Assembly: GCA_019244185.1 (NCBI GenBank)
Contig: JAFATB010000015.1
Location: 25,109 to 89,108 of the forward strand
DNA: 64,000 bases
Origin: Acidobacteriota bacterium
GTDB taxonomy: Bacteria; Acidobacteriota; Thermoanaerobaculia; Gp7-AA8
Reading direction: 5' to 3'
Both the position numbers and the translations under genes were made by a program. The first letter of the stretch is position 1. Every line of letters begins with the position of its first letter. The notes under the pieces are model-generated. The model had not been told where the DNA came from. It saw nothing but the letters and a program-made list of their open reading frames with translations, and searched no databases. Shown one piece after another: positions 54,963 to 62,006 of this stretch.

Positions 54963-55493
54963 TCACGCGCCGGCCGCACTCCAGAACGGCGTCGCGTCGA
55001 CCATCTTCCGGATCGCGGCGAGAAGCGACGGGTCGTTGCGCAGCCGCGACCGGATCCACCGCGCGAAGCGAACGTCGCCTTCGTCGCCGCCGTGTTCGCG
55101 CAGATGCGCGAGCCACGCGTCCGGATTTCCGTCGTACACGCGGACGAAGACGTGAAAGCGGATGAATTGCGCGACCATCGACGCGTCACCCCCCGGCATC
55201 TTCACGACGTCCGCGAGCGGCTCGGCAATCGGCTTCGCGCGCCGCCGCGCGAGCGTCGTCGTGAACAGTTCGATCACGTTTTCGATCACGTCGCCGCGCC
55301 GTTCGACGCGATGCGCGATGCGGCTCACGCGCAGCGTTTTTCCGGCCACCCGCACCTGCTCTCCCGGTCCGATCGGCAACCACGGACGACGCGACGCGCG
55401 GCGCCACAACACTTTTCTTTGGCTGCCCGGCGCGTACACGAGAAGAACGTATAAGTTCCTGATAACGCGCGTTTTGACTCGTATCCGTTCCAC
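54963..55493 (-). CDS. Hypothetical protein divergent from the ECF sigma gene
   Basis: GTG start after GAGGGG; basic beta-rich N-terminal half and helical C-terminal half (YDGNPDAWL...RFARWIR). Confidence 0.6.
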   Translation of the reverse strand: MERIRVKTRVIRNLYVLLVYAPGSQRKVLWRRASRRPWLPIGPGEQVRVAGKTLRVSRIAHRVERRGDVIENVIELFTTTLARRRAKPIAEPLADVVKMPGGDASMVAQFIRFHVFVRVYDGNPDAWLAHLREHGGDEGDVRFARWIRSRLRNDPSLLAAIRKMVDATPFWSAAGA

Positions 55494-55575
55494 TCGCACC
55501 CCCTCATCAACGGAGTGTGCGGAAATCCATGAATACCTACCTCCACAGCATGGTAAGGTACGTAAGAAATCCTTC

Positions 55576-56100
55576 ATGACGACGAATTCGCTGACGCAGC
55601 CACGGGTCGACGATCGGCAGTTCGAAGCCGTCTACGAACAGTACTTCCCGCTGCTCGTCCAGATCGCGTCGTTCAAGTTCAGCGTCCCCGATTCCGAGGC
55701 TGAGACGCTCGCGCACGATGTGCTCATCAGCTACCTGCGCAAGAGCCGTTTGATCGTCGAGCTGCGCCCATGGCTGATCGGCGCGATCTGCTACGCGAGC
55801 CGGCACTACTGGCGCCTCAACGGACGCATCCTCGACGCCGAGGCGGAGATCGCGGCGGACCGCGTCGACCCGGCGTCGATTCGGATCCTCGACAGCCTCC
55901 CCGACCAGCTCGCGGCGCGCGAAGCGCTGGAATGCCTCGCCCCGCGCTGCCGCGAGGTCCTGCGGCTCCGCTATTTCGAAGGTTGGACGGTGATCGAGAT
56001 CGCGCAGCGTTTCGGCATCAAGCCGAAGTCCGCGCAGAAGCTGATTTCGAAATGCCTGCGCCGCGCCGAGCGGCTCTACTGCGGAAAGGGCGCGCGATGA
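55576..56100 (+). CDS. ECF RNA polymerase sigma factor
   Basis: Region 2 (FEAVYEQY...EAETLAHDV...PWLIG) and region 4 (LAPRCREVLRLRYFEGWTVIEIAQRFG); 174 aa. Confidence 0.88.
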   Translation: MTTNSLTQPRVDDRQFEAVYEQYFPLLVQIASFKFSVPDSEAETLAHDVLISYLRKSRLIVELRPWLIGAICYASRHYWRLNGRILDAEAEIAADRVDPASIRILDSLPDQLAAREALECLAPRCREVLRLRYFEGWTVIEIAQRFGIKPKSAQKLISKCLRRAERLYCGKGAR

Positions 56101-57290
56101 GCGAACGCGAAGAACGCACGCGCCTCGTCCCCTTCCGCCGGAGCCGCCACACCCCCGACCCCGCCCGCGTCGCCGAGTTCGCCGCGACCGCGCGAAAGAT
56201 CCAGGCCGAACGCGCGCTCGCCGCCGAACAGGTGGAGAAGTTGCTGAAGGAAACCCCGCGCGCACAGTGGCCGCGCCTGGTGAACGAGGAGAGGTTGCGG
56301 ACGCACGGCGCGCTGGAGCAGTTGTCGAATGCGGTGGAGCAGCGGCGCGATCGCAATCCGGTTGAAGCACTGGCGGTGGCCGAGATCGCCTCATCGATCG
56401 CAGCATCGCTCGCGGATTACCCAGGCGTTCTGCTCGCGCAGATGCGGTCGCAAGCATTGAAGGATCGGGCTCAGGTGCTTTGTGCTCTCGCTCGATACGA
56501 CGAGTCGCTCGCGACGATCACCGCTGCAGAAGAACTCCTTGAACCATTCGGCGCGTTAGGGCACGACGTCGCGACGCTGCAGTTCACGCGTGCAAACGTA
56601 CTGCAGCATCTCCGTCGTTTCGACGAAGCCTCCCAACTGCTCGAAGAATGCCGCCGTACTTTTCACAGCTACGGCGACACGCGGCTGTCCACAACGGCCG
56701 CGATCGCGCTGGGGAACCTGCTCGTTCGCCGCGGCGACTACCGTGCTGCATGTCAGCTGCTGCAGCCACTGGCTCAACACACCGAGGCGCCGACGAGGCC
56801 GATCGTACTCCTCGCCCTCGGCTGGTGTGCCGTTCATCTCAACGCGCCCGACGACGCTCTCGAGTACTTCACCGGCGCGCGAGCGGGCTTTCGCGCGCTT
56901 GGCCGTACGGTGTCGGAGCTGAAAGCAGCTTACGGCGTCGCCTCAGCGCTCTTGCATCTGGGCAGGCTCGCTGATGCTGCCGCACAATTCTCAGAGACTC
57001 GTGACCGGTTTCTCGCCTCCGACGTCATCGAGGAAGCGGGCCTCAGCGGGCTCGGAATGGTCGAGGTATACCTGCTGCGGAACGAGAATGATCACGCGAG
57101 AGATCTCGCCGCGCGCATCGTCCATGAATTTTCCGAAGCGCGCCTGAATCAGCGGGCGATCGCGGCGCTGGCATATTTGAACGAGGCAATCGCCGCGAGC
57201 AACGCCACGCCCGACGTTGCCCGCAGCGTGTGCGAATACATCCTGGCGCTGCAACTCGAACCTACATGTGAATTCGCTGTGGTGAACTAG
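56097..57290 (+). CDS. Cytoplasmic tetratricopeptide-repeat protein
   Basis: Repeated TPR-like units (LARYDES, LRRFDEA, RGDYRAA, LNAPDDA, LGRLADA); ATGA overlap with the sigma stop; no signal peptide or TM. Confidence 0.8.
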   Translation: MSEREERTRLVPFRRSRHTPDPARVAEFAATARKIQAERALAAEQVEKLLKETPRAQWPRLVNEERLRTHGALEQLSNAVEQRRDRNPVEALAVAEIASSIAASLADYPGVLLAQMRSQALKDRAQVLCALARYDESLATITAAEELLEPFGALGHDVATLQFTRANVLQHLRRFDEASQLLEECRRTFHSYGDTRLSTTAAIALGNLLVRRGDYRAACQLLQPLAQHTEAPTRPIVLLALGWCAVHLNAPDDALEYFTGARAGFRALGRTVSELKAAYGVASALLHLGRLADAAAQFSETRDRFLASDVIEEAGLSGLGMVEVYLLRNENDHARDLAARIVHEFSEARLNQRAIAALAYLNEAIAASNATPDVARSVCEYILALQLEPTCEFAVVN

Positions 57291-57487
57291 TGGTGCGGCC
57301 AAGGATCGACGAGACCATCACCGAAGATGCGCACGACCAGCTTCTTGATCACCTTCACGATCGGATTCGGCTCTCTCCCGATCCCCACGCCATCGCGGCT
57401 CGGCGCCGCCTGCGCGGATCCTGCGAGCAGCAGAACGACGGACAACGCGACGACACCACGACCCACAACACTGGACACACGACGCAT
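57287..57487 (-). CDS. Small secreted pre-peptide (66 aa)
   Basis: AGGAGG RBS; Sec signal MRRVSSVVGRGVVALSVVLLLAGSAQA|; 39-aa mature part ending IVKVIKKLVVRIFGDGLVDPWPHH; stop overlaps the TPR stop in CTAG. Confidence 0.75.
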   Translation of the reverse strand: MRRVSSVVGRGVVALSVVLLLAGSAQAAPSRDGVGIGREPNPIVKVIKKLVVRIFGDGLVDPWPHH

Positions 57488-57615
57488 AAGCCCTCCTGTT
57501 TCCGGCATTTGCCGGGATTGATCTGGAGGGCGCCCTCACCTCGCGGTGTGACGGAACTGTTCCTTATGCCCCCGTAGGCTGTGCAGGAAACTGCACACGC
57601 GCGCCAGCGCGACAC

Positions 57616-57990
57616 CTAACTCGAGATCGGGAACAACGGCAGGATTCGCGACCTCGCTCGCGCAGGATCGATAGTCACGAGCGCACCACGCTCGAGTTGC
57701 ATCGTCAGATCGTGGAGCGTGGCGACGACGATCGGGCCGACGGCCGCCGGCGTTGGATCCTGCGTACGGATCTGAATGACGCTCGGACCACGCGCGTTGG
57801 TCGCGGCGAGGATGTTGCCGAAATCGAGATCGTGCGTGAACACGGCAAAGCCAGCGTCGCGCGCGTACGCCATGATCTCAGCGTCGGACGCGGTCGGATT
57901 GCCGAGCATCACCCAATGCTCGGCCGTGATGCCGTGTTGCGCAAACAACTGAACCCACTCCGGGCTCTTCATGTCGACGAGCAGTTTCAC
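57616..57990 (-). CDS. DUF5615 PIN-like toxin (VapC45-like)
   Basis: MKLLVDM, DAEI, FTHDLDFG and PSVIQIR motifs. Confidence 0.88.
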   Translation of the reverse strand: MKLLVDMKSPEWVQLFAQHGITAEHWVMLGNPTASDAEIMAYARDAGFAVFTHDLDFGNILAATNARGPSVIQIRTQDPTPAAVGPIVVATLHDLTMQLERGALVTIDPARARSRILPLFPISS

Positions 57991-58214
57991 TTCGCCAGGC
58001 GGACTTCAAATTCATCCGAACGCCACGCCGCATACGCGAGCGCCTCGGAGATGTCTTCGGCCTCGAGGTACGGATAAAGACGAAGAATCTCCTCTTGCGT
58101 GCGTCCGGCAGCGAGCAACCCGATGATCGTTCCGACCGTCACGCGCATGCCGCGAATGCAGGGGCGACCGCCCATGATGGCCGGATCGGCGGTGATACGC
58201 GTGAGGGCGTGCAC
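57987..58214 (-). CDS. DUF433 antitoxin (VapB45-like)
   Basis: RITADPAIMGGRPCIRGMRVTV...YPYLEAEDI; overlaps the toxin start. Confidence 0.92.
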   Translation of the reverse strand: MHALTRITADPAIMGGRPCIRGMRVTVGTIIGLLAAGRTQEEILRLYPYLEAEDISEALAYAAWRSDEFEVRLAK

Positions 58215-58418
58215 GGTGAAAGTGTACGCTCACTGCGCGGACGCGGCGCGCAGCGCCGGCCGCGGTACGGGCGGCTCGTCAGCTTCACCGCCCCCCACCC
58301 CTCCGCACTGACGGAAACATCTCCGTTAACACCCCGCCGTCACCATTTCTGCGGCTTTCCACCGGACGGCCGGTCGGCTAGAGTGCGTCGTTCTTTGTTT
58401 CAGGGGGTTGCAACGCAG

Positions 58419-60848
58419 TTGAATCGTCCCATCCCGTTCCATCGTCCCAATCCCGATCCTTACCGCGCAGCATTCGAACGGCACCCGCATCCGATGTGGG
58501 TCTACGACGCCGACGACCTGTCGGTGCTCGCGGCCAACGCCGCCGCCGTCCGCCATTACGGCTACACCGCAGGCGAGCTGCATCGCCTGCGCATGCCCGA
58601 GCTCCATCCGCTTGCCGACGCCGATCGTGTAACCGGTTACTACGCCGGAACTCCGATGCCGGTGGGCAGGAAACGCGGCTGGACGCACCTCCGCAAGGAC
58701 GGCAGCACCCTCGAGGTGGAAACGATGCTCACGCCGCTCGCCGGCGCCGGCGCGGAGCTCCGCCTCCTCATCGCCGAAGACGTCACCGAGCGCAATCGCG
58801 CGCATCGCGCCCTGAAGGAAGCGAAGCAGCGCTACACCGCGCTCGTCGCCGACGCCTACGAGGCCATCTGTCTCGTCGACGCCGAAGGCCACATCCTCTA
58901 TCTCAGCCCGTCCCTCCACCGCATGTTCGGCTACGAGGACGAAGAGCTCCTCGGCCGCAACGGCTTCGCGCTCCTGCACCGTGACGACGTCACCCGCATC
59001 GAAGACCTGCGCCGAGAGCTCCTCGCGCGTCCCGGCACGACCGTCTCCTTCGAATGCCGCGCGCGGCGCCGCGACGGCCACTGGCGCTGGCTGCAAGGCA
59101 TCGCCGTGAACATGCTCACCGACCCGAGCGTCGCCGCGCTGGTGCTCAACTATCGCGACGTCACCGACCGCCGCCGCACCGAACAGGCGCTGCGCCAGGG
59201 CGAGCCCGCTGGCGGCGTCGACGACTGGTCGTTCGAGCTCGACATCCGCGGCTTCATCACCGCGAGCACTCCCGCCGTCGAGCGCATCCTCGGATACAAA
59301 CCGGCCGACGTCATCGGCCGCCATTTCACCGACTTTTACTTCGCCGAGTCGCGCGAGAAAGTGCGCGAGTTCTTCGCGCGCATCGTGACCGTGCGCAGCG
59401 GCTGGACGGATCTCGTCCAGCGCCTCCGCCACCGCGACGGCAGCGAATGTTTCGTCGAGGCGAGCGGCGTACCGCTCTTCGACGCGAGCGGCAACCTCAC
59501 CGGCTTTCGCGGCAGCGACCGCGACATCACCTCGCGCGCGCGGTTCGAGCAGCGCGTGCGGCACGGCTCGCGCCGCGATCCGCTGACCGGGCTGCCGAAC
59601 CGCCTCTTCTTTCAGGAACGGCTCGCGACCGTGTTGTCGTGCCTCGCGCGCAACGGCAGCGACGAGCACATGGCCGTGCTCTTCATCGACCTCGATCACT
59701 TCAAGCTCGTCAACGACACCTTCGGACACGCGGTTGGCGACAACGCGCTGCAGGTGATCGGCAGCATGATCCGCGCGATTGCCGGCGGCGACGACAACGT
59801 CGCGCGCGTGGGCGGCGACGAGCTCGCGGTCTTTCTCCCCGGCGTCTCCGGCATCGAGGAGGCAAGCGAGATCGCACGGAAGATCTTCCACACCATCGCG
59901 GTGCCGCTGGAGCTCGGCGGCAATCAGGTGCACGTCTCCGCGACGATCGGCATCAGCATCTCGCCGTGCGACGGCGACACCTCGTCGGCACTCTTCCGCA
60001 ACGCCGAGCACGCGATGCAGCGCGCGAAGGAGCTCGGCCGCTGCCGTATTCAGCACTTCACGCCCGAGATGCGCGAGGAGCAGGCGCGGCGTCTCGCGCT
60101 CGAATCCGAACTGCGCGGCGCGCTCGACCGCGGAGAACTGCTCCTGCACTACCAGCCGTTGGTCAACTCGTTGACTTTCGAGATGGTCGGCGTCGAGGCG
60201 CTGCTGCGCTGGCGTCACCCGACGCGCGGCCTGTTGTCGCCGGACGAGTTCATCGCCATCGCCGAGCGCAGCGGCGCGATCGTGCCGCTCGGCGCGTGGG
60301 CGCTGCGCCAGGCCTGCGTCGACCTGCAGCGCCTGCGCGCCGCCACCGGCCGCGAGCTCCGCGTCGCGGTCAATCTCTCCGCGCGGCAGTTGCAGGAGCC
60401 GGAACTGCTCGACTCCTTGCGCGCGATCGTGCGCGACACCGGCGTCGACCCGCGCAATGTCGAAGTGGAGATCACCGAAAGCGTCGCCATGCAGAACGCG
60501 CAGGCCACGCTGATGACGCTGCAACTGCTGAAGGAGATGGGCGTCTCGCTCGCCGTCGACGACTTCGGCACCGGCTACTCGTCGCTGCTCTACCTCACCC
60601 GCTTCCCGATCGACACGGTGAAGATCGACCGGCAGTTCGTCGGCAACGTGACGCACGATCCGAACGCCGCCGCCGTCGTCGGCGCGGTGGTCGCGCTCGC
60701 GCACAGCCTTCAGCTCAAGACCGTCGCCGAAGGCGTCGAGACGAGCGAGCAGCGCGACTTCCTGGCCGGACATCGCTGCGCGGAAATGCAGGGCTTTCTC
60801 TTCGCGCGGCCGGTACCGATCGAGACGCTGCTCGAGGCGTCAGCGTAG
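58419..60848 (+). CDS. PAS x3 - GGDEF - EAL c-di-GMP enzyme
   Basis: Three PAS/PAC units, DPLTGLPNR, GGDEL, EAL and DDFGTGYSS; TTG start is approximate. Confidence 0.92.
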   Translation: MNRPIPFHRPNPDPYRAAFERHPHPMWVYDADDLSVLAANAAAVRHYGYTAGELHRLRMPELHPLADADRVTGYYAGTPMPVGRKRGWTHLRKDGSTLEVETMLTPLAGAGAELRLLIAEDVTERNRAHRALKEAKQRYTALVADAYEAICLVDAEGHILYLSPSLHRMFGYEDEELLGRNGFALLHRDDVTRIEDLRRELLARPGTTVSFECRARRRDGHWRWLQGIAVNMLTDPSVAALVLNYRDVTDRRRTEQALRQGEPAGGVDDWSFELDIRGFITASTPAVERILGYKPADVIGRHFTDFYFAESREKVREFFARIVTVRSGWTDLVQRLRHRDGSECFVEASGVPLFDASGNLTGFRGSDRDITSRARFEQRVRHGSRRDPLTGLPNRLFFQERLATVLSCLARNGSDEHMAVLFIDLDHFKLVNDTFGHAVGDNALQVIGSMIRAIAGGDDNVARVGGDELAVFLPGVSGIEEASEIARKIFHTIAVPLELGGNQVHVSATIGISISPCDGDTSSALFRNAEHAMQRAKELGRCRIQHFTPEMREEQARRLALESELRGALDRGELLLHYQPLVNSLTFEMVGVEALLRWRHPTRGLLSPDEFIAIAERSGAIVPLGAWALRQACVDLQRLRAATGRELRVAVNLSARQLQEPELLDSLRAIVRDTGVDPRNVEVEITESVAMQNAQATLMTLQLLKEMGVSLAVDDFGTGYSSLLYLTRFPIDTVKIDRQFVGNVTHDPNAAAVVGAVVALAHSLQLKTVAEGVETSEQRDFLAGHRCAEMQGFLFARPVPIETLLEASA

Positions 60849-62006
60849 GTCTTCCCACAGCCGCACGTAGGTCTCGTAGCGGCCGCGATCGAGGGTCTCG
60901 TCCTCGACGCGGTCCTGCACCTCGCAGTCCGGCTCGTGGACGTGCGTGCAGTTCGTGAAGCGGCAGAGCTCCGCGTGCTCGGCGAACTCGGGGAAGTAGT
61001 CGCGCAATGACTCGCGATCGAGATCCCACAAGCCGAACTCGCGGATACCCGGCGTGTCGATGAGATACGTGCCGCTGCCGAAGTCGAAGAGCGTCGACGC
61101 GGTCGTCGTATGGCGGCCGGTGCCCCGTTTCTTGTGCAGCGTATTCGTCGCGAGTTGCAGCGATGCATCGAGCGCGTTGAGGATCGACGACTTGCCGACG
61201 CCGCTGTGGCCGACGAGCGCCGCCATCTTCCCTTCCGCCACGGCGCGCAGTTCCTCGAGCCCCTCGCCGGTCTTCGACGAGCAGGCGATGACGGGAACGC
61301 CGAGGTCGCGGTAGGGGGCGAGACGATCGAGCTCGTGCGCGCGGTCGGCGGGAGAGAGCAGATCGAGCTTGTTCACGCAGATCACCGGCTGCGCGCCGCC
61401 GCGCTGGATCGCGATCAGATAGCGGTCGATGAGACGCGGACGCAGCGGCGGCGCCTTGACGGAGACGACGTGAATGACGACGTCGATGTTCGCGGCGATC
61501 AGGCGCTGCAGGTGCGCGTGCAACGGATCGGGACGCGCGAGCACGGAGTGACGCGGCAGCACGGACGCGAGACGCCAGACGCCGTCGTCGTCCGTCACGC
61601 GCACGCGATCGCCGACGGCGAGCGAGCTGCGCTGGCGCACGGCCAGCTCCGGCGGCACGAGACAGTCAACCTCTTGACCTTCGAAGAAGACCCGGCACCG
61701 GCCGCTGGAAACGCTCATCACGATGCCGGCCTCGTCCCAGTCCGCGTCGTCGGTCTCGACTTCCTGCGACTGCGTTTCCTGCAAATGCGCGAGCATCGTT
61801 TCGATGGACGGGCGCTTGCGCGAGGGCCCGTGTTTGTCGAGCAGCTCTTCCCAGTTGTCCTCGGTGATGCGCGACTCGCGCACCTCCCCTTTCTCTTTTC
61901 CGCGGAGCGCGCGGCGCAGTTTTCCGGCCTGCTTGCGCGACTTCATCTCGTCGTACGGGACATGTTTTTCGATGTCCTTGAGATGCCGCTTGGTCGTGCG
62001 ATCCAT
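60840..62006 (-). CDS. rsgA: Ribosome small subunit-dependent GTPase A
   Basis: NKLD, GHSGVGKS, GRHTT, DTPG and CRFTNCTHVHEPDC zinc motif. Confidence 0.95.
   Translation of the reverse strand: MDRTTKRHLKDIEKHVPYDEMKSRKQAGKLRRALRGKEKGEVRESRITEDNWEELLDKHGPSRKRPSIETMLAHLQETQSQEVETDDADWDEAGIVMSVSSGRCRVFFEGQEVDCLVPPELAVRQRSSLAVGDRVRVTDDDGVWRLASVLPRHSVLARPDPLHAHLQRLIAANIDVVIHVVSVKAPPLRPRLIDRYLIAIQRGGAQPVICVNKLDLLSPADRAHELDRLAPYRDLGVPVIACSSKTGEGLEELRAVAEGKMAALVGHSGVGKSSILNALDASLQLATNTLHKKRGTGRHTTTASTLFDFGSGTYLIDTPGIREFGLWDLDRESLRDYFPEFAEHAELCRFTNCTHVHEPDCEVQDRVEDETLDRGRYETYVRLWEDLR

Follow-up and report, generated by a model that had tools for sequence, protein, structure and literature searches.

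PMC10075063 treats peptide signalling via cytoplasmic TPR receptors as a trait of Gram-positive bacteria. The RRNPP signature set out there has five elements: a propeptide of 10–100 aa, a Sec/SPI signal called by SignalP, a receptor of 250–500 aa, TPRs in that receptor, and genes that are direct neighbours. A second related group is formed by the ECF42 sigma factors, which carry a fused C-terminal TPR extension and, according to PMC8999054 and PMC7826278, probably become active when a partner binds the TPR part. Our literature search found no paper combining RRNPP and Acidobacteria.

The locus described here lies in a 64-kb stretch of DNA, the whole of which we call the window, and consists of genes for a small peptide, a TPR protein and an ECF-type sigma factor (Table 1). 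In layout it resembles peptide-signalling cassettes that to date have been described from Gram-positive bacteria alone. Judged by sequence, all five elements of the PMC10075063 signature are present: the propeptide has 66 aa; a Sec signal was called by hand rules, in place of the SignalP of the published definition; the receptor has 397 aa; it contains TPRs by Pfam, AF2 and Foldseek; and the two genes are direct neighbours with a 4-nt overlap, in convergent orientation. Two further RRNPP traits set the locus apart, namely an N-terminal HTH or Rap-type helical effector domain, as the TPR protein has no HTH, and a home in Firmicutes, their plasmids or phages, as 26 of the 27 loci found belong to Thermoanaerobaculia/Acidobacteriota.

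Table 1. Features of the locus, with positions in the window
Feature	Position	Strand	Basis and remarks
ECF-type sigma factor, 174 aa	55576..56100	+	TIGR02937, Pfam Sigma70_r4_2; coupled to TPR gene
Cytoplasmic TPR protein, 397 aa	56097..57290	+	Pfam TPR_12 (3.5e-14) and others; candidate receptor/regulator
Pre-peptide CDS, 66 aa + stop	57287..57487	-	Sequence, SD, codon-position GC, homologues, dN/dS
C-terminal tail, residues 56-66	57290..57322	-	GDGLxxPxP core; lowest mean column entropy (0.90 bits)
Cationic amphipathic helix, residues 42-55 (14 residues)	57323..57364	-	Hydrophobic moment, AF2, conserved K/R
Linker, residues 28-41	57365..57406	-	Predicted disordered; mean column entropy 2.69 bits; low confidence in AF2
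Sec-type signal peptide (predicted), residues 1-27	57407..57487	-	n-region MRR..R, uncharged run, AxA; hand rules
Shine-Dalgarno AGGAGGGC	57490..57497	-	Strong; GGAG invariant in 24/24 aligned upstream regions
Short GC hairpin, CCGGC-loop-GCCGG	57502..57515	-	Just upstream of SD; alignment by eye
GC palindrome GAGGGCGCCCTC	57525..57537	-	Conserved; variants keep the symmetry
Promoter-like block with CGTCAC, 36 nt	57540..57575	-	Conserved in upstream alignment; nhmmer

The peptide ORF is a genuine conserved gene for a small cationic peptide with predicted export. The ORF and translation quoted in the first-pass annotation match the window sequence exactly; the ATG (57485–57487) lies 2 nt downstream of the SD, and the stop codon overlaps that of the TPR gene. 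That annotation had staked its case on homologous small ORFs and on purifying selection, and both were found. The window peptide is the founding member of an unannotated small-protein family with at least 61 relatives, and dN/dS was 0.26–0.39 in the five closest pairs, with pN well below pS; with the fixed synteny described below, these results show that the gene is real. The relatives are mostly 52–76 aa long (one listed relative has 131 aa), and four close homologues show 95, 80, 75 and 52% identity. In a 50%-clustered library, 31 short representative proteins matched at E ≤ 1e-3, and 32 HMM-positive ORFs were spread over the 27 genome loci. Pfam and NCBIfam assigned no family to the peptide, Rfam gave nothing above chance on the peptide region, and an ESM Atlas search returned only unnamed Acidobacteriota clusters at 0.86–0.89, under the 0.9 lead level. 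Within the window, tblastn found no paralogue of the peptide (next match E = 0.051).

The architecture proposed earlier, consisting of signal, linker, cationic amphipathic helix and Pro-rich tail, was borne out across 62 aligned family members, apart from the Trp of the tail. W63 occurs in 9/62 members and an HH extension after PxP only in the window peptide and its two closest relatives, so neither is a tail feature of the family. The signal n-region holds two to four K/R in 60/62 members and is followed by an uncharged run of 15–20 residues; position -1 is A or G in all 62, AxA is present in 34, and cleavage of the window peptide is predicted after A-Q-A (A27). R2 (94%), R10 (90%) and A27 are conserved at 90% or more, G11 and V12 at 74%. 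AF2 modelled the pre-peptide as a helix (2–25), a low-confidence linker (26–41, with pLDDT < 50 at residues 31–36), a second helix (42–55) and a coil tail. The amphipathic character of the second helix held up when checked: its hydrophobic moment is 0.65 in the window, as high in 711 of 20000 shuffles, and the family median is 0.735. Its basic residues are conserved (K45 89%, K48 87%, K49 69%, R/K53 82%), and the mature peptide carries a net charge of +3 to +5 in 55/62 members, against +2 in the window.

The first-pass annotation had suggested the tail as a specificity signal and had proposed an alignment to tell conserved from hypervariable parts. Over the 62 members, the tail is not hypervariable; no other region is as well conserved (mean column entropy 0.90 bits, compared with 1.65 for the helix and 1.75 for the signal). 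It is the linker that is hypervariable, in sequence and in length, with many charged residues. G56, D57, P62 and P64 are invariant and only positions 60, 61 and 63 vary, giving a core with four invariant and two nearly invariant positions out of nine, and the peptide ends exactly at PxP in 49/62 members. The C-terminus is the natural candidate ligand.

Further loci were located with a degenerate DNA pattern, derived from right-anchored column statistics and scanned over genomes. The loci were collected via the peptide, and the counts cover peptide-bearing loci; they are lower bounds, because the pattern matches just 16 of 35 known members at the protein level. Sixty-three of the 90 pattern loci (Nostoc and others) were excluded as family members by HMM, and an earlier genome search with a 5-sequence alignment had matched 85 stretches, none of which was confirmed. 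The family comprises at least 27 loci in 20 MAGs, the one locus from outside Thermoanaerobaculia/Acidobacteriota being a 3-kb contig binned as Rhizobiaceae. A TPR homologue adjoins the peptide gene in 24/27 loci, and the remaining three are cut at that side. The two genes are convergent in 23/23 loci, mostly with abutting stops, and their 3' ends lie within -17 to +5 nt of each other in 21/23. The TPR gene is preceded by an ECF-type sigma gene or by a mini-protein with sigma region 2 only, and the stop-to-stop linkage persists in the latter case. The far side of the peptide gene varies, with rsgA in 12/27 loci and an acyltransferase, a K+ transporter, GGDEF-EAL or unknown genes elsewhere; the rsgA synteny indicates that part of the gene-order conservation is vertical inheritance. 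In six of the 20 MAGs there are two or three modules, whose tails differ, and the peptide gene occurs in tandem copies in five loci. The conserved neighbourhood supports the earlier proposal of a functional link between the peptide and the TPR/sigma pair. A link to DUF5615/DUF433 was discarded, as none of the 27 loci carries them.

The sigma protein scored 54.0 bits against TIGR02937 (cutoff 42.9, residues 14–163); Pfam found region 4 (2e-11) and did not find region 2 at E ≤ 0.01. With regions 2 and 4 only, and a size in the range of about 170–200 aa, it fits the ECF (group 4) class. Homologues in 13 loci are 68–78% identical, and in other modules a sigma-region-2-like mini-protein of 74–95 aa takes the place of the full sigma. 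The TPR start overlaps the sigma stop as ATGA in the window and in 13/14 full-sigma loci, an arrangement by which the two genes are translationally coupled. By position, the sole candidate for an anti-sigma encoded beside the sigma gene is the co-translated TPR protein.

The AF2 model of the TPR protein (pLDDT 91.3) has 18 helices in TPR-like pairs and no strands, with an N-terminal helical region (helices 21–103) before the repeats. Neither sequence nor model showed a signal or TM segment, and Pfam and NCBIfam gave no HTH, DNA-binding or ASD (anti-sigma domain) family. Its homologues, in at least 148 clusters, are all named merely as TPR proteins. Foldseek matched the model to LGN/Pins, Rap and NprR (TM 0.47–0.62), including complexes and structures of known peptide receptors (Rap-peptide, RapF-ComA, pLS20 Rap-Phr*, phi3T Rap and NprR-NprX) at TM 0.47–0.55. 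The profile likewise matched RapJ (1.6e-7), RapI (1.5e-5) and NprR (1.3e-4); designed TPRs, LGN/Pins and kinesin light chain matched it as well or better, and eukaryotic LGN/Pins outscored Rap and NprR in both profile and Foldseek searches. The structural matches are generic, and in sequence the protein resembles Rap/NprR no more closely than it resembles TPR proteins at large.

The peptide gene does not share an operon with the sigma and TPR genes; it is convergent to them and has a conserved upstream block to itself. The nhmmer profile of this block had a single match in the window and, in the loci, matched only upstream of peptide genes, which ruled out a promoter shared with the sigma operon. 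The block contains CGTC, a candidate for the typical ECF -10 motif. It did not match the sigma-70 consensus, and a sigma-54 or sigma-70 reading was rejected on that ground and for its spacing, which judged by eye is unsuitable. Retention of the block's upstream half is not confined to modules whose sigma has region 4: locus L012 has a region-2-only protein and yet the full block.

Between the block and the start codon, the CCGGC-loop-GCCGG hairpin was seen by eye in 22/24 aligned upstream regions; its column-wise pair counts are poor (59% paired) because its variable loops misalign. The 3' half of the palindrome (GCCCUCC in RNA; anti-SD 57525–57531) is complementary to the SD. In the RNAalifold consensus the two pair over 7 bp, with 92.9% of cells paired, and the minimum free energy structure of the window leader sequesters SD and AUG (z = -1.94). 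Covariation in the aligned upstream regions was almost nil for the palindrome-SD pairing and essentially nil overall. On these folding models, an SD-hiding leader structure is a possible gate on translation of the peptide.

The module shares several properties with RRNPP cassettes. As in Rap-Phr, NprR-NprX and PlcR-PapR, the gene for a propeptide with a Sec signal adjoins a gene for a cytoplasmic TPR protein of 250–500 aa, the informative part of the peptide is at the C-terminus, and several paralogous cassettes can occur per genome. Like Rap, the TPR protein lacks a DNA-binding domain, and it presumably works through contact with a second regulator. It differs from them in its host phylum, the diderm Acidobacteriota; in its presumed partner, an ECF sigma or sigma-region-2 mini-protein instead of a response regulator or HTH; in strictly convergent genes with touching stops; in a tail that is strongly conserved, unlike RRNPP pherotypes; and in the cationic amphipathic helix ahead of that tail. 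The analogy to Phr/PapR peptides drawn in the first-pass annotation therefore stands for the five signature elements and the C-terminal candidate ligand and does not extend to a hypervariable tail. With ECF42 the module shares a minimal ECF-type sigma (above the TIGR02937 cutoff) coupled to a TPR domain, and, as in TPR-regulated ECF sigmas, there is no membrane anti-sigma. In contrast to ECF42, the TPR part is a separate, translationally coupled protein, a gene for a putatively secreted peptide is a fixed third member, and some modules keep only the region-2-like protein.

Our reading of the locus, held tentatively, is a Rap-Phr-like peptide/TPR pair that gates a sigma factor. Peptide, convergent TPR and upstream sigma would form a self-contained three-gene signalling module of Thermoanaerobaculia (Acidobacteriota). 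The pre-peptide would be exported via Sec and lose its signal peptide after A27, leaving a cationic peptide of about 37 aa or a shorter C-terminal fragment with GDGLxxPxP and a free carboxyl end. After re-uptake, the cytoplasmic TPR superhelix would recognise this product in its groove. Coupling through ATGA would ensure that TPR protein and sigma are made in a fixed ratio, and peptide occupancy would decide whether the TPR protein holds or releases sigma. The logic would be that of Rap-Phr/RRNPP systems, except that an ECF sigma would serve as output where those have an HTH or response regulator, and the conserved 5' leader, able to hide the SD, might add a translational gate on peptide production. 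The analysis shows that the gene is real and establishes its architecture, its family, the fixed synteny and the fold of the TPR protein; export, processing, re-import, binding of the TPR protein to peptide and to sigma, and any density dependence are what we infer here.

This reading is supported by the conservation of the module (TPR adjacency, convergence and a varying far side), by the five signature elements, by the matches of the TPR protein to Rap/NprR structures and profiles, by the sigma/TPR overlap, by the strongest constraint falling on the extreme C-terminus, and by genomes with several modules of different tails. Divergence rates add to this: mean pairwise distance is 0.49 for the TPR protein and 0.55 for the mature peptide, compared with 0.25 for sigma, so both diverge about twice as fast as sigma. 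Distance at tail positions tracked TPR distance across 14 modules (Mantel r 0.66, p 1e-4). On trees, this correlation is a single split between DP-type and hydrophobic-P-type tails, which requires one change on the tree of the TPR protein; the tree of sigma lacks resolution and did not reject the same split (AU p 0.134). Plain co-inheritance thus explains the correlation, and the Mantel and partial Mantel values, strong as they look, are not counted as evidence of specific tail-TPR coevolution.

Several observations weigh against the signalling reading. The structural matches are generic and better for LGN/Pins than for Rap/NprR, the tail/TPR correlation fits co-inheritance, and the rsgA synteny attributes part of the gene order to descent. 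The tail is conserved and has not diversified into pherotypes as in Phr/PapR, and a model in which the peptide is only a signal leaves the amphipathic helix and the signal n-region, both conserved, unexplained. In a diderm host, a Sec product arrives in the periplasm, so that both outer-membrane passage and re-import would be needed; the module includes no importer of the Opp type. The TPR protein has no HTH, and contact with sigma is assumed from gene coupling alone. We accordingly regard as doubtful the broader claim of a first RRNPP-like peptide-receptor communication outside Firmicutes, in which a Rap-like TPR protein reads the conserved GDGLxxPxP end and gates an ECF sigma (a region-2 decoy in the second module type), with several orthogonal cassettes per genome in uncultured soil Acidobacteria.

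The main rival, on the unlikely side in our estimate, treats the peptide as an output effector, the main and perhaps sole target gene of the neighbouring sigma. The cationic peptide would act on the cell's own envelope or surface (membrane/LPS binding, surface activity, stress protection) or on competitors in the manner of a bacteriocin, and the TPR protein would control sigma in response to a cytoplasmic cue unrelated to the peptide. ECF sigmas often adjoin their target genes; the ECF sigma BldN, which drives small secreted chaplins, is a precedent for such an output, and tandem gene copies, as in five loci here, are common for effector or bacteriocin genes. The charge, hydrophobic moment and conserved helix residues give the peptide a membrane-active profile, and the promoter-like block solely upstream of peptide genes also fits a sigma target; its absence upstream of the sigma operon, however, means that no shared autoregulated promoter was found. 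The strict stop-to-stop linkage to the TPR gene, even next to a region-2 mini-protein, goes beyond usual target adjacency, and membrane activity offers no obvious role for the invariant free C-terminal motif. The signal peptide, a mature length of about 37 aa, the charge and the amphipathic helix are shared with Sec-dependent cationic amphipathic bacteriocins and AMPs. Unlike them, the module has no immunity or transporter gene, its host is diderm, the C-terminus is invariant and Pro-rich, and the peptide gene is linked to a TPR/sigma pair. No immunity, exporter or processing gene was found nearby, the genes on the upstream side of the peptide differing among the 27 loci, and a Sec product that stays periplasmic in a diderm speaks against an antibacterial role on other cells. 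The bacteriocin/immunity alternative put forward in the first-pass annotation thus finds no specific support.

Less probable still, and in our view improbable, is a secretion-coupled switch, in which the TPR protein binds unexported pre-peptide by its tail, its signal n-region or both, and export frees the TPR protein to bind or release sigma, whose activity would report Sec flux or envelope stress. Precedents for secretion-coupled regulation are FlgM-sigma28, ExsE-ExsC and IpgC-MxiE, IpgC being a TPR chaperone with MxiE as its partner; in these systems (FlgM-sigma28, ExsE/ExsC/ExsD/ExsA, IpgC-MxiE), as here, a small exported protein, a cytoplasmic binder and a transcription factor are encoded together. 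A switch of this kind needs neither re-import nor passage through the outer membrane. It would account for the conservation of the n-region (R2, R10, G11/V12) as well as of the C-terminus, is in keeping with a cytoplasmic TPR protein, and an SD-sequestering leader fits tight dosing of a bait protein. The support is purely by analogy, however, and the known examples use dedicated machines, flagellar or type III, whereas the module peptide has a Sec signal. Fast Sec export would leave a small cytoplasmic pool, and a Sec monitor has no obvious need for multiple paralogous modules per genome.

Close to refuted is the view that the reading frame arose by chance in GC-rich sequence, or that the TPR transcript has here a conserved antisense or 3'-UTR element: the GC content is 67%, four further ORFs of 64–95 aa overlap the same ~300 nt (so that ORF length is no evidence of a gene), the opposite frame has a similar GC1/2/3 pattern, and antisense transcription across the ORF is likely, there being no space for a terminator between the two convergent genes, but frame, start, SD and stop position are kept across 62 sequences with indels in multiples of three, closest pairs are under purifying selection, signal-peptide grammar is kept throughout the family, and a conserved block and an SD of its own precede the gene.

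If the signalling reading is true, a cassette of this kind would extend TPR-peptide signalling to a diderm soil phylum whose members are largely uncultured, and would tie its logic to the control of a sigma factor, a type of output that is new. Should the peptide be an effector, the locus still defines an unannotated family of peptides with predicted export, a family of TPR partners of ECF-type sigmas, and a conserved leader that may gate translation.

Translation of the minus strand of the window returned exactly the 66-residue protein quoted in the first-pass annotation; a longer, 73-aa form starting at 57508 lacks a comparable Shine-Dalgarno (SD) site. Because four further ORFs of 64–95 aa overlap this stretch of 300 nt, and because codon-position GC in the opposite frame is similar to that of the peptide frame, the open frame alone is no evidence of a gene in this window of 66.6% GC. 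Its GC3 (0.73) is lower than that of the housekeeping neighbours (0.83–0.87) and near that of the adjacent TPR gene (0.68). Four relatives of 64–66 aa, with identities of 95, 80, 75 and 52%, came out of a word-indexed protein search, and an exhaustive search of 50%-identity representatives gave 32 proteins with E ≤ 1e-3, 31 of which are 52–131 aa and align end to end. A 948-aa match, similar via low-complexity stretches only, was dropped. The final alignment comprises 62 sequences (family proteins P0011, P0017, P0031 and P0035 were left out); M1, G56, D57, P62 and P64 are invariant in it, and conservation reaches 90% or more at R2, R10, A27 and G58. Nei–Gojobori dN/dS is 0.26–0.39 for the five most similar gene pairs; remoter pairs are uninformative since their synonymous sites are saturated. 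The homologous small ORFs and purifying selection on which the annotation had staked its proposal were thus both found, and this comparison of sequences establishes the ORF as a genuine gene that belongs to a family. No Pfam or NCBIfam model matched the peptide, its ESM Atlas matches were unnamed Acidobacteriota clusters only, and no second copy was found within the 64-kb window.

The proposed architecture of signal, linker, amphipathic cationic helix and tail was recovered across the 62 members by hand rules, AF2 and muH. A Sec-type signal peptide is predicted by the hand rules, with 2–4 K/R in the n-region (60/62 members), an uncharged run of 15–20 residues, and A or G at position −1 in all 62 (AxA in 34/62). 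AF2, run on the 62-row alignment, predicts helices at residues 2–25 and 42–55, a low-confidence stretch at 26–41 and a coil tail (mean pLDDT 70.4; below 50 at residues 31–36). The second helix is amphipathic, with muH of 0.65 in the window (711 of 20,000 shuffles as high) and a family median of 0.735. Predicted mature peptides have a median length of 37 aa and, in 55/62, a net charge of +3 to +5; that of the window has 39 aa and +2. Mean column entropy is 1.75 bits in the signal, 2.69 in the linker, 1.65 in the helix and 0.90 in the tail, so that conservation peaks in the tail and the linker is hypervariable, a division that the annotation had left to alignment and that is incomplete in that tail positions 60, 61 and 63 vary (1.9–2.6 bits). 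The "Pro/Trp" tail held for its two invariant prolines and not for its tryptophan, present at position 63 in 9/62 members. Forty-nine of the 62 proteins end exactly at PxP, and the HH ending of the window's peptide is common only to its two closest relatives. P0011 carries two tail motifs in succession (GDGLxxPxP, a short spacer and the motif again), which gives the tail the look of a unit that can be repeated.

GTDB species genomes were scanned with a degenerate DNA pattern built from right-anchored column statistics, which matches 16 of 35 known members at the protein level. Among the resulting 90 loci (L-numbers), the family HMM recognized 32 peptide ORFs in 27; the other 63, having no HMM match, are chance or unrelated matches. 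Matches in Nostoc (L002, L003, L005 and about 20 more) fall at one conserved place, are negative with the family HMM and represent an unrelated conserved gene. Twenty MAGs contribute the 27 loci (23 labelled Thermoanaerobaculia, 3 labelled Acidobacteriota and 1 on a 3-kb contig binned as Rhizobiaceae). That contig (L081, JACMIV010000227.1, 3001 bp) holds a family member and a TPR fragment; a binning error is likelier than a true occurrence outside Acidobacteriota.

A TPR homologue (31–51% identity) adjoins the peptide gene in 24/27 loci, and in the remaining three (L047, L074, L079) the locus ends before the TPR side. The two genes are convergent in all 23 loci with both ends visible, with 3'-end gaps of −17 nt (three loci), −11 (two), 0 (ten), 1 (two), 2 (one), 3 (three), 5 (one), 21 (one) and 65 (one), and −4 nt in the window. 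No intrinsic terminator fits between them, so their transcripts must overlap. A sigma homologue lies 5' of the TPR gene in 20/27 loci. It is full-length in 13 (68–78% identity), and the ATGA overlap with the TPR gene occurs in 13 of 14 full-sigma loci, partial L032 counted in. In six of the 20, the pre-TPR ORF has just 74–84 aa, alignable to sigma region 2, and L012 has a seventh such ORF, of up to 95 aa, missed by tblastn. These alignments point to a second module type, with a region-2-only ORF of 74–95 aa, no region 4, and the TPR protein and peptide kept. One full-sigma module together with one or two region-2-only modules is a frequent combination within MAGs.

Features of the module and its surroundings in the window and region-2-like ORFs at other loci
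Feature	Position	Strand	Remark
Leader of sigma gene	55430-55578	+	~110 nt, highly conserved across loci
uORF in sigma leader	55529-55579	+	16 codons; TGA overlaps sigma ATG
ECF-type sigma gene	55576-56100	+	174 aa; stop overlaps TPR start as ATGA
TPR gene	56097-57290	+	397 aa; convergent with peptide gene, 4-nt overlap
Pre-peptide CDS	57287-57487	-	66 residues
Peptide ATG	57485-57487	-	AGGAGGGC 2 nt upstream
Short GC hairpin	57502-57515	-	conserved in alignment
GC palindrome	57526-57537	-	variants keep symmetry
Promoter-like block containing CGTCAC	57540-57575	-	36 nt; conserved in alignment
DUF433/DUF5615 pair	57616-58214	-	between rsgA and peptide gene
PAS-GGDEF-EAL gene	58095-60848	+	between rsgA and peptide gene
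rsgA	60840-62006	-	beyond GGDEF-EAL gene and DUF433/DUF5615 pair
Region-2-like ORF	L012:463-750	+	putative second module type
Region-2-like ORF	L019:3229-3471	-	putative second module type
Region-2-like ORF	L021:620-841	+	putative second module type
Region-2-like ORF	L027:522-773	+	putative second module type
Region-2-like ORF	L031:588-809	+	putative second module type
Region-2-like ORF	L035:563-814	+	putative second module type
Region-2-like ORF	L070:568-807	+	putative second module type

On the peptide's upstream side, rsgA is present in 12/27 loci, and some of the synteny thus reflects a chromosomal region passed on vertically; elsewhere this side holds an acyltransferase, a K+ transporter, a GGDEF-EAL gene or ORFs without family. 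Since most of these 12 have rsgA immediately upstream of the peptide gene, the window's PAS-GGDEF-EAL gene and its DUF433 and DUF5615 genes look like insertions; the latter two, on the peptide's own strand, are presumably a toxin-antitoxin pair and occur in 0/27 loci. L025 and L063 have parts of the GGDEF-EAL gene in common with the window. The peptide-TPR-sigma triad outlasts neighbourhood change. Five loci (L044, L059, L063, L089, L079) carry two tandem peptide genes, differing mainly in the linker and the variable tail positions, and 6/20 MAGs harbour two or three separate modules whose tails differ.

About 100 nt 5' of the peptide gene are conserved in 24 aligned loci, the SD included; eight peptide genes (downstream tandem copies, those with cut flanks and those without the promoter-like block) lie outside this alignment. 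The block profile has a single match in the 64-kb window, matches solely upstream of peptide genes in the loci, and never upstream of sigma in either. Read as a sigma-70 promoter, the block has no consensus match; ECF −10 elements typically contain CGTC. In L044 and L063 the block precedes the first tandem copy only, a pattern suggestive of a two-peptide operon; both copies have it in L089. In the RNAalifold consensus, the palindrome's 3' half forms 7 bp with the SD, and the window's MFE structure (−29.9 kcal/mol, z = −1.94; 9/200 shuffles as stable) buries SD and AUG. Pairing is high (92.9%) but almost without covariation, so that a translational gate on the peptide gene is plausible at most. 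Rfam gave no family for this upstream region. The uORF in the sigma leader differs in frame and length in other loci, and conservation of that leader may therefore be at the RNA level.

Homologues of the TPR protein form at least 148 clusters of about 395 aa, named as TPR proteins only and drawn from Acidobacteriota or Thermoanaerobaculia MAGs. The AF2 model (52 sequences; pLDDT 91.3) begins at residue 2 and has 18 predicted helices, no strands, a disordered N-terminus of 13 residues and no signal or TM segment. Foldseek against the PDB placed LGN/Pins on top (TM 0.48–0.62), followed by RapJ-PhrC, RapF-ComA, pLS20 Rap with and without Phr*, phi3T Rap and NprR-NprX (TM 0.47–0.55), and sequence-profile matches kept this order. 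With LGN/Pins ahead of Rap/NprR, the predicted fold indicates a peptide-binding type of TPR superhelix, not specific kinship with the receptors of RRNPP, the Firmicutes peptide quorum-sensing systems. The disordered N-terminus (window 56097-56160, plus strand, and homologues) has a conserved basic motif containing Pro-Asp-Pro; its weak, loose likeness to the DPxP of one tail class (DP-type) could mark an internal pseudo-ligand.

We compared tails and TPR proteins in 14 modules with complete sigma, TPR protein and peptide, excluding 11 incomplete or mini-sigma modules. Modules that lie further apart at tail positions 60, 61 and 63 also tend to have more distant TPR proteins (Mantel r 0.66, p 1e-4); the partial r is still 0.66 with sigma distance controlled, and the reverse partial correlation is negative. 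DP-type (6) and hydrophobic-P-type (8) tails fall on two sides of one fully supported branch of the TPR tree; the sigma tree lacks resolution and does not reject the same division (AU p 0.134). Given this single tree event and the sigma result, we treat the correlation as co-inheritance, compatible with coevolution yet no evidence for it. Mean distances of 0.49 for the TPR protein, 0.55 for the mature peptide and 0.25 for sigma put the first two at roughly twice the evolutionary rate of the third.

By analogy, we tentatively favour a Rap-Phr-like peptide/TPR pair governing the sigma factor: the TPR protein would take the peptide after export, or a C-terminal piece of it that ends PxP-COOH, as its ligand and would control the co-translated sigma factor. 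The Phr/PapR analogy drawn in the annotation carries over to all five elements of the published computable RRNPP signature (PMC10075063), the module having a small propeptide that is Sec-secreted (by hand rules) and a receptor of 250–500 aa with TPRs, encoded by direct neighbours. It falters where the tail is conserved instead of diversified. RRNPP membership is not claimed: the Rap and NprR matches do not single out a known receptor subfamily, the TPR protein has no HTH that we could find, its host belongs to another phylum, and import of the peptide and its binding are predictions of the model. The Rap-Phr-like reading further has to contend with a diderm envelope and no importer within the module, and it leaves the conserved helix without explanation; its main rival, only somewhat less probable, would make an envelope-active cationic peptide the output of the sigma factor. 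A secretion-coupled partner switch, the TPR protein binding the pre-peptide before export, seems improbable on analogy.

Full-text literature searches returned nothing joining RRNPP with Acidobacteria or Thermoanaerobaculia with a sigma factor, and broader searches listed nothing on such a module; this sigma group might figure in the supplementary tables to the ECF classification. The portions available of two reviews of ECF regulation (PMC7826278, PMC8999054) describe fused TPR extensions (ECF42) and contain no separate TPR and secreted-peptide module; in ECF42 as described there the TPR is fused to sigma, whereas here a separate TPR protein accompanies a peptide predicted to be secreted. The observation made in the annotation is confirmed, and its interpretation finds support in part. 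The three genes are an unannotated, lineage-specific module, best likened to a peptide-signalling cassette of Gram-positive bacteria that has been coupled to a sigma factor.
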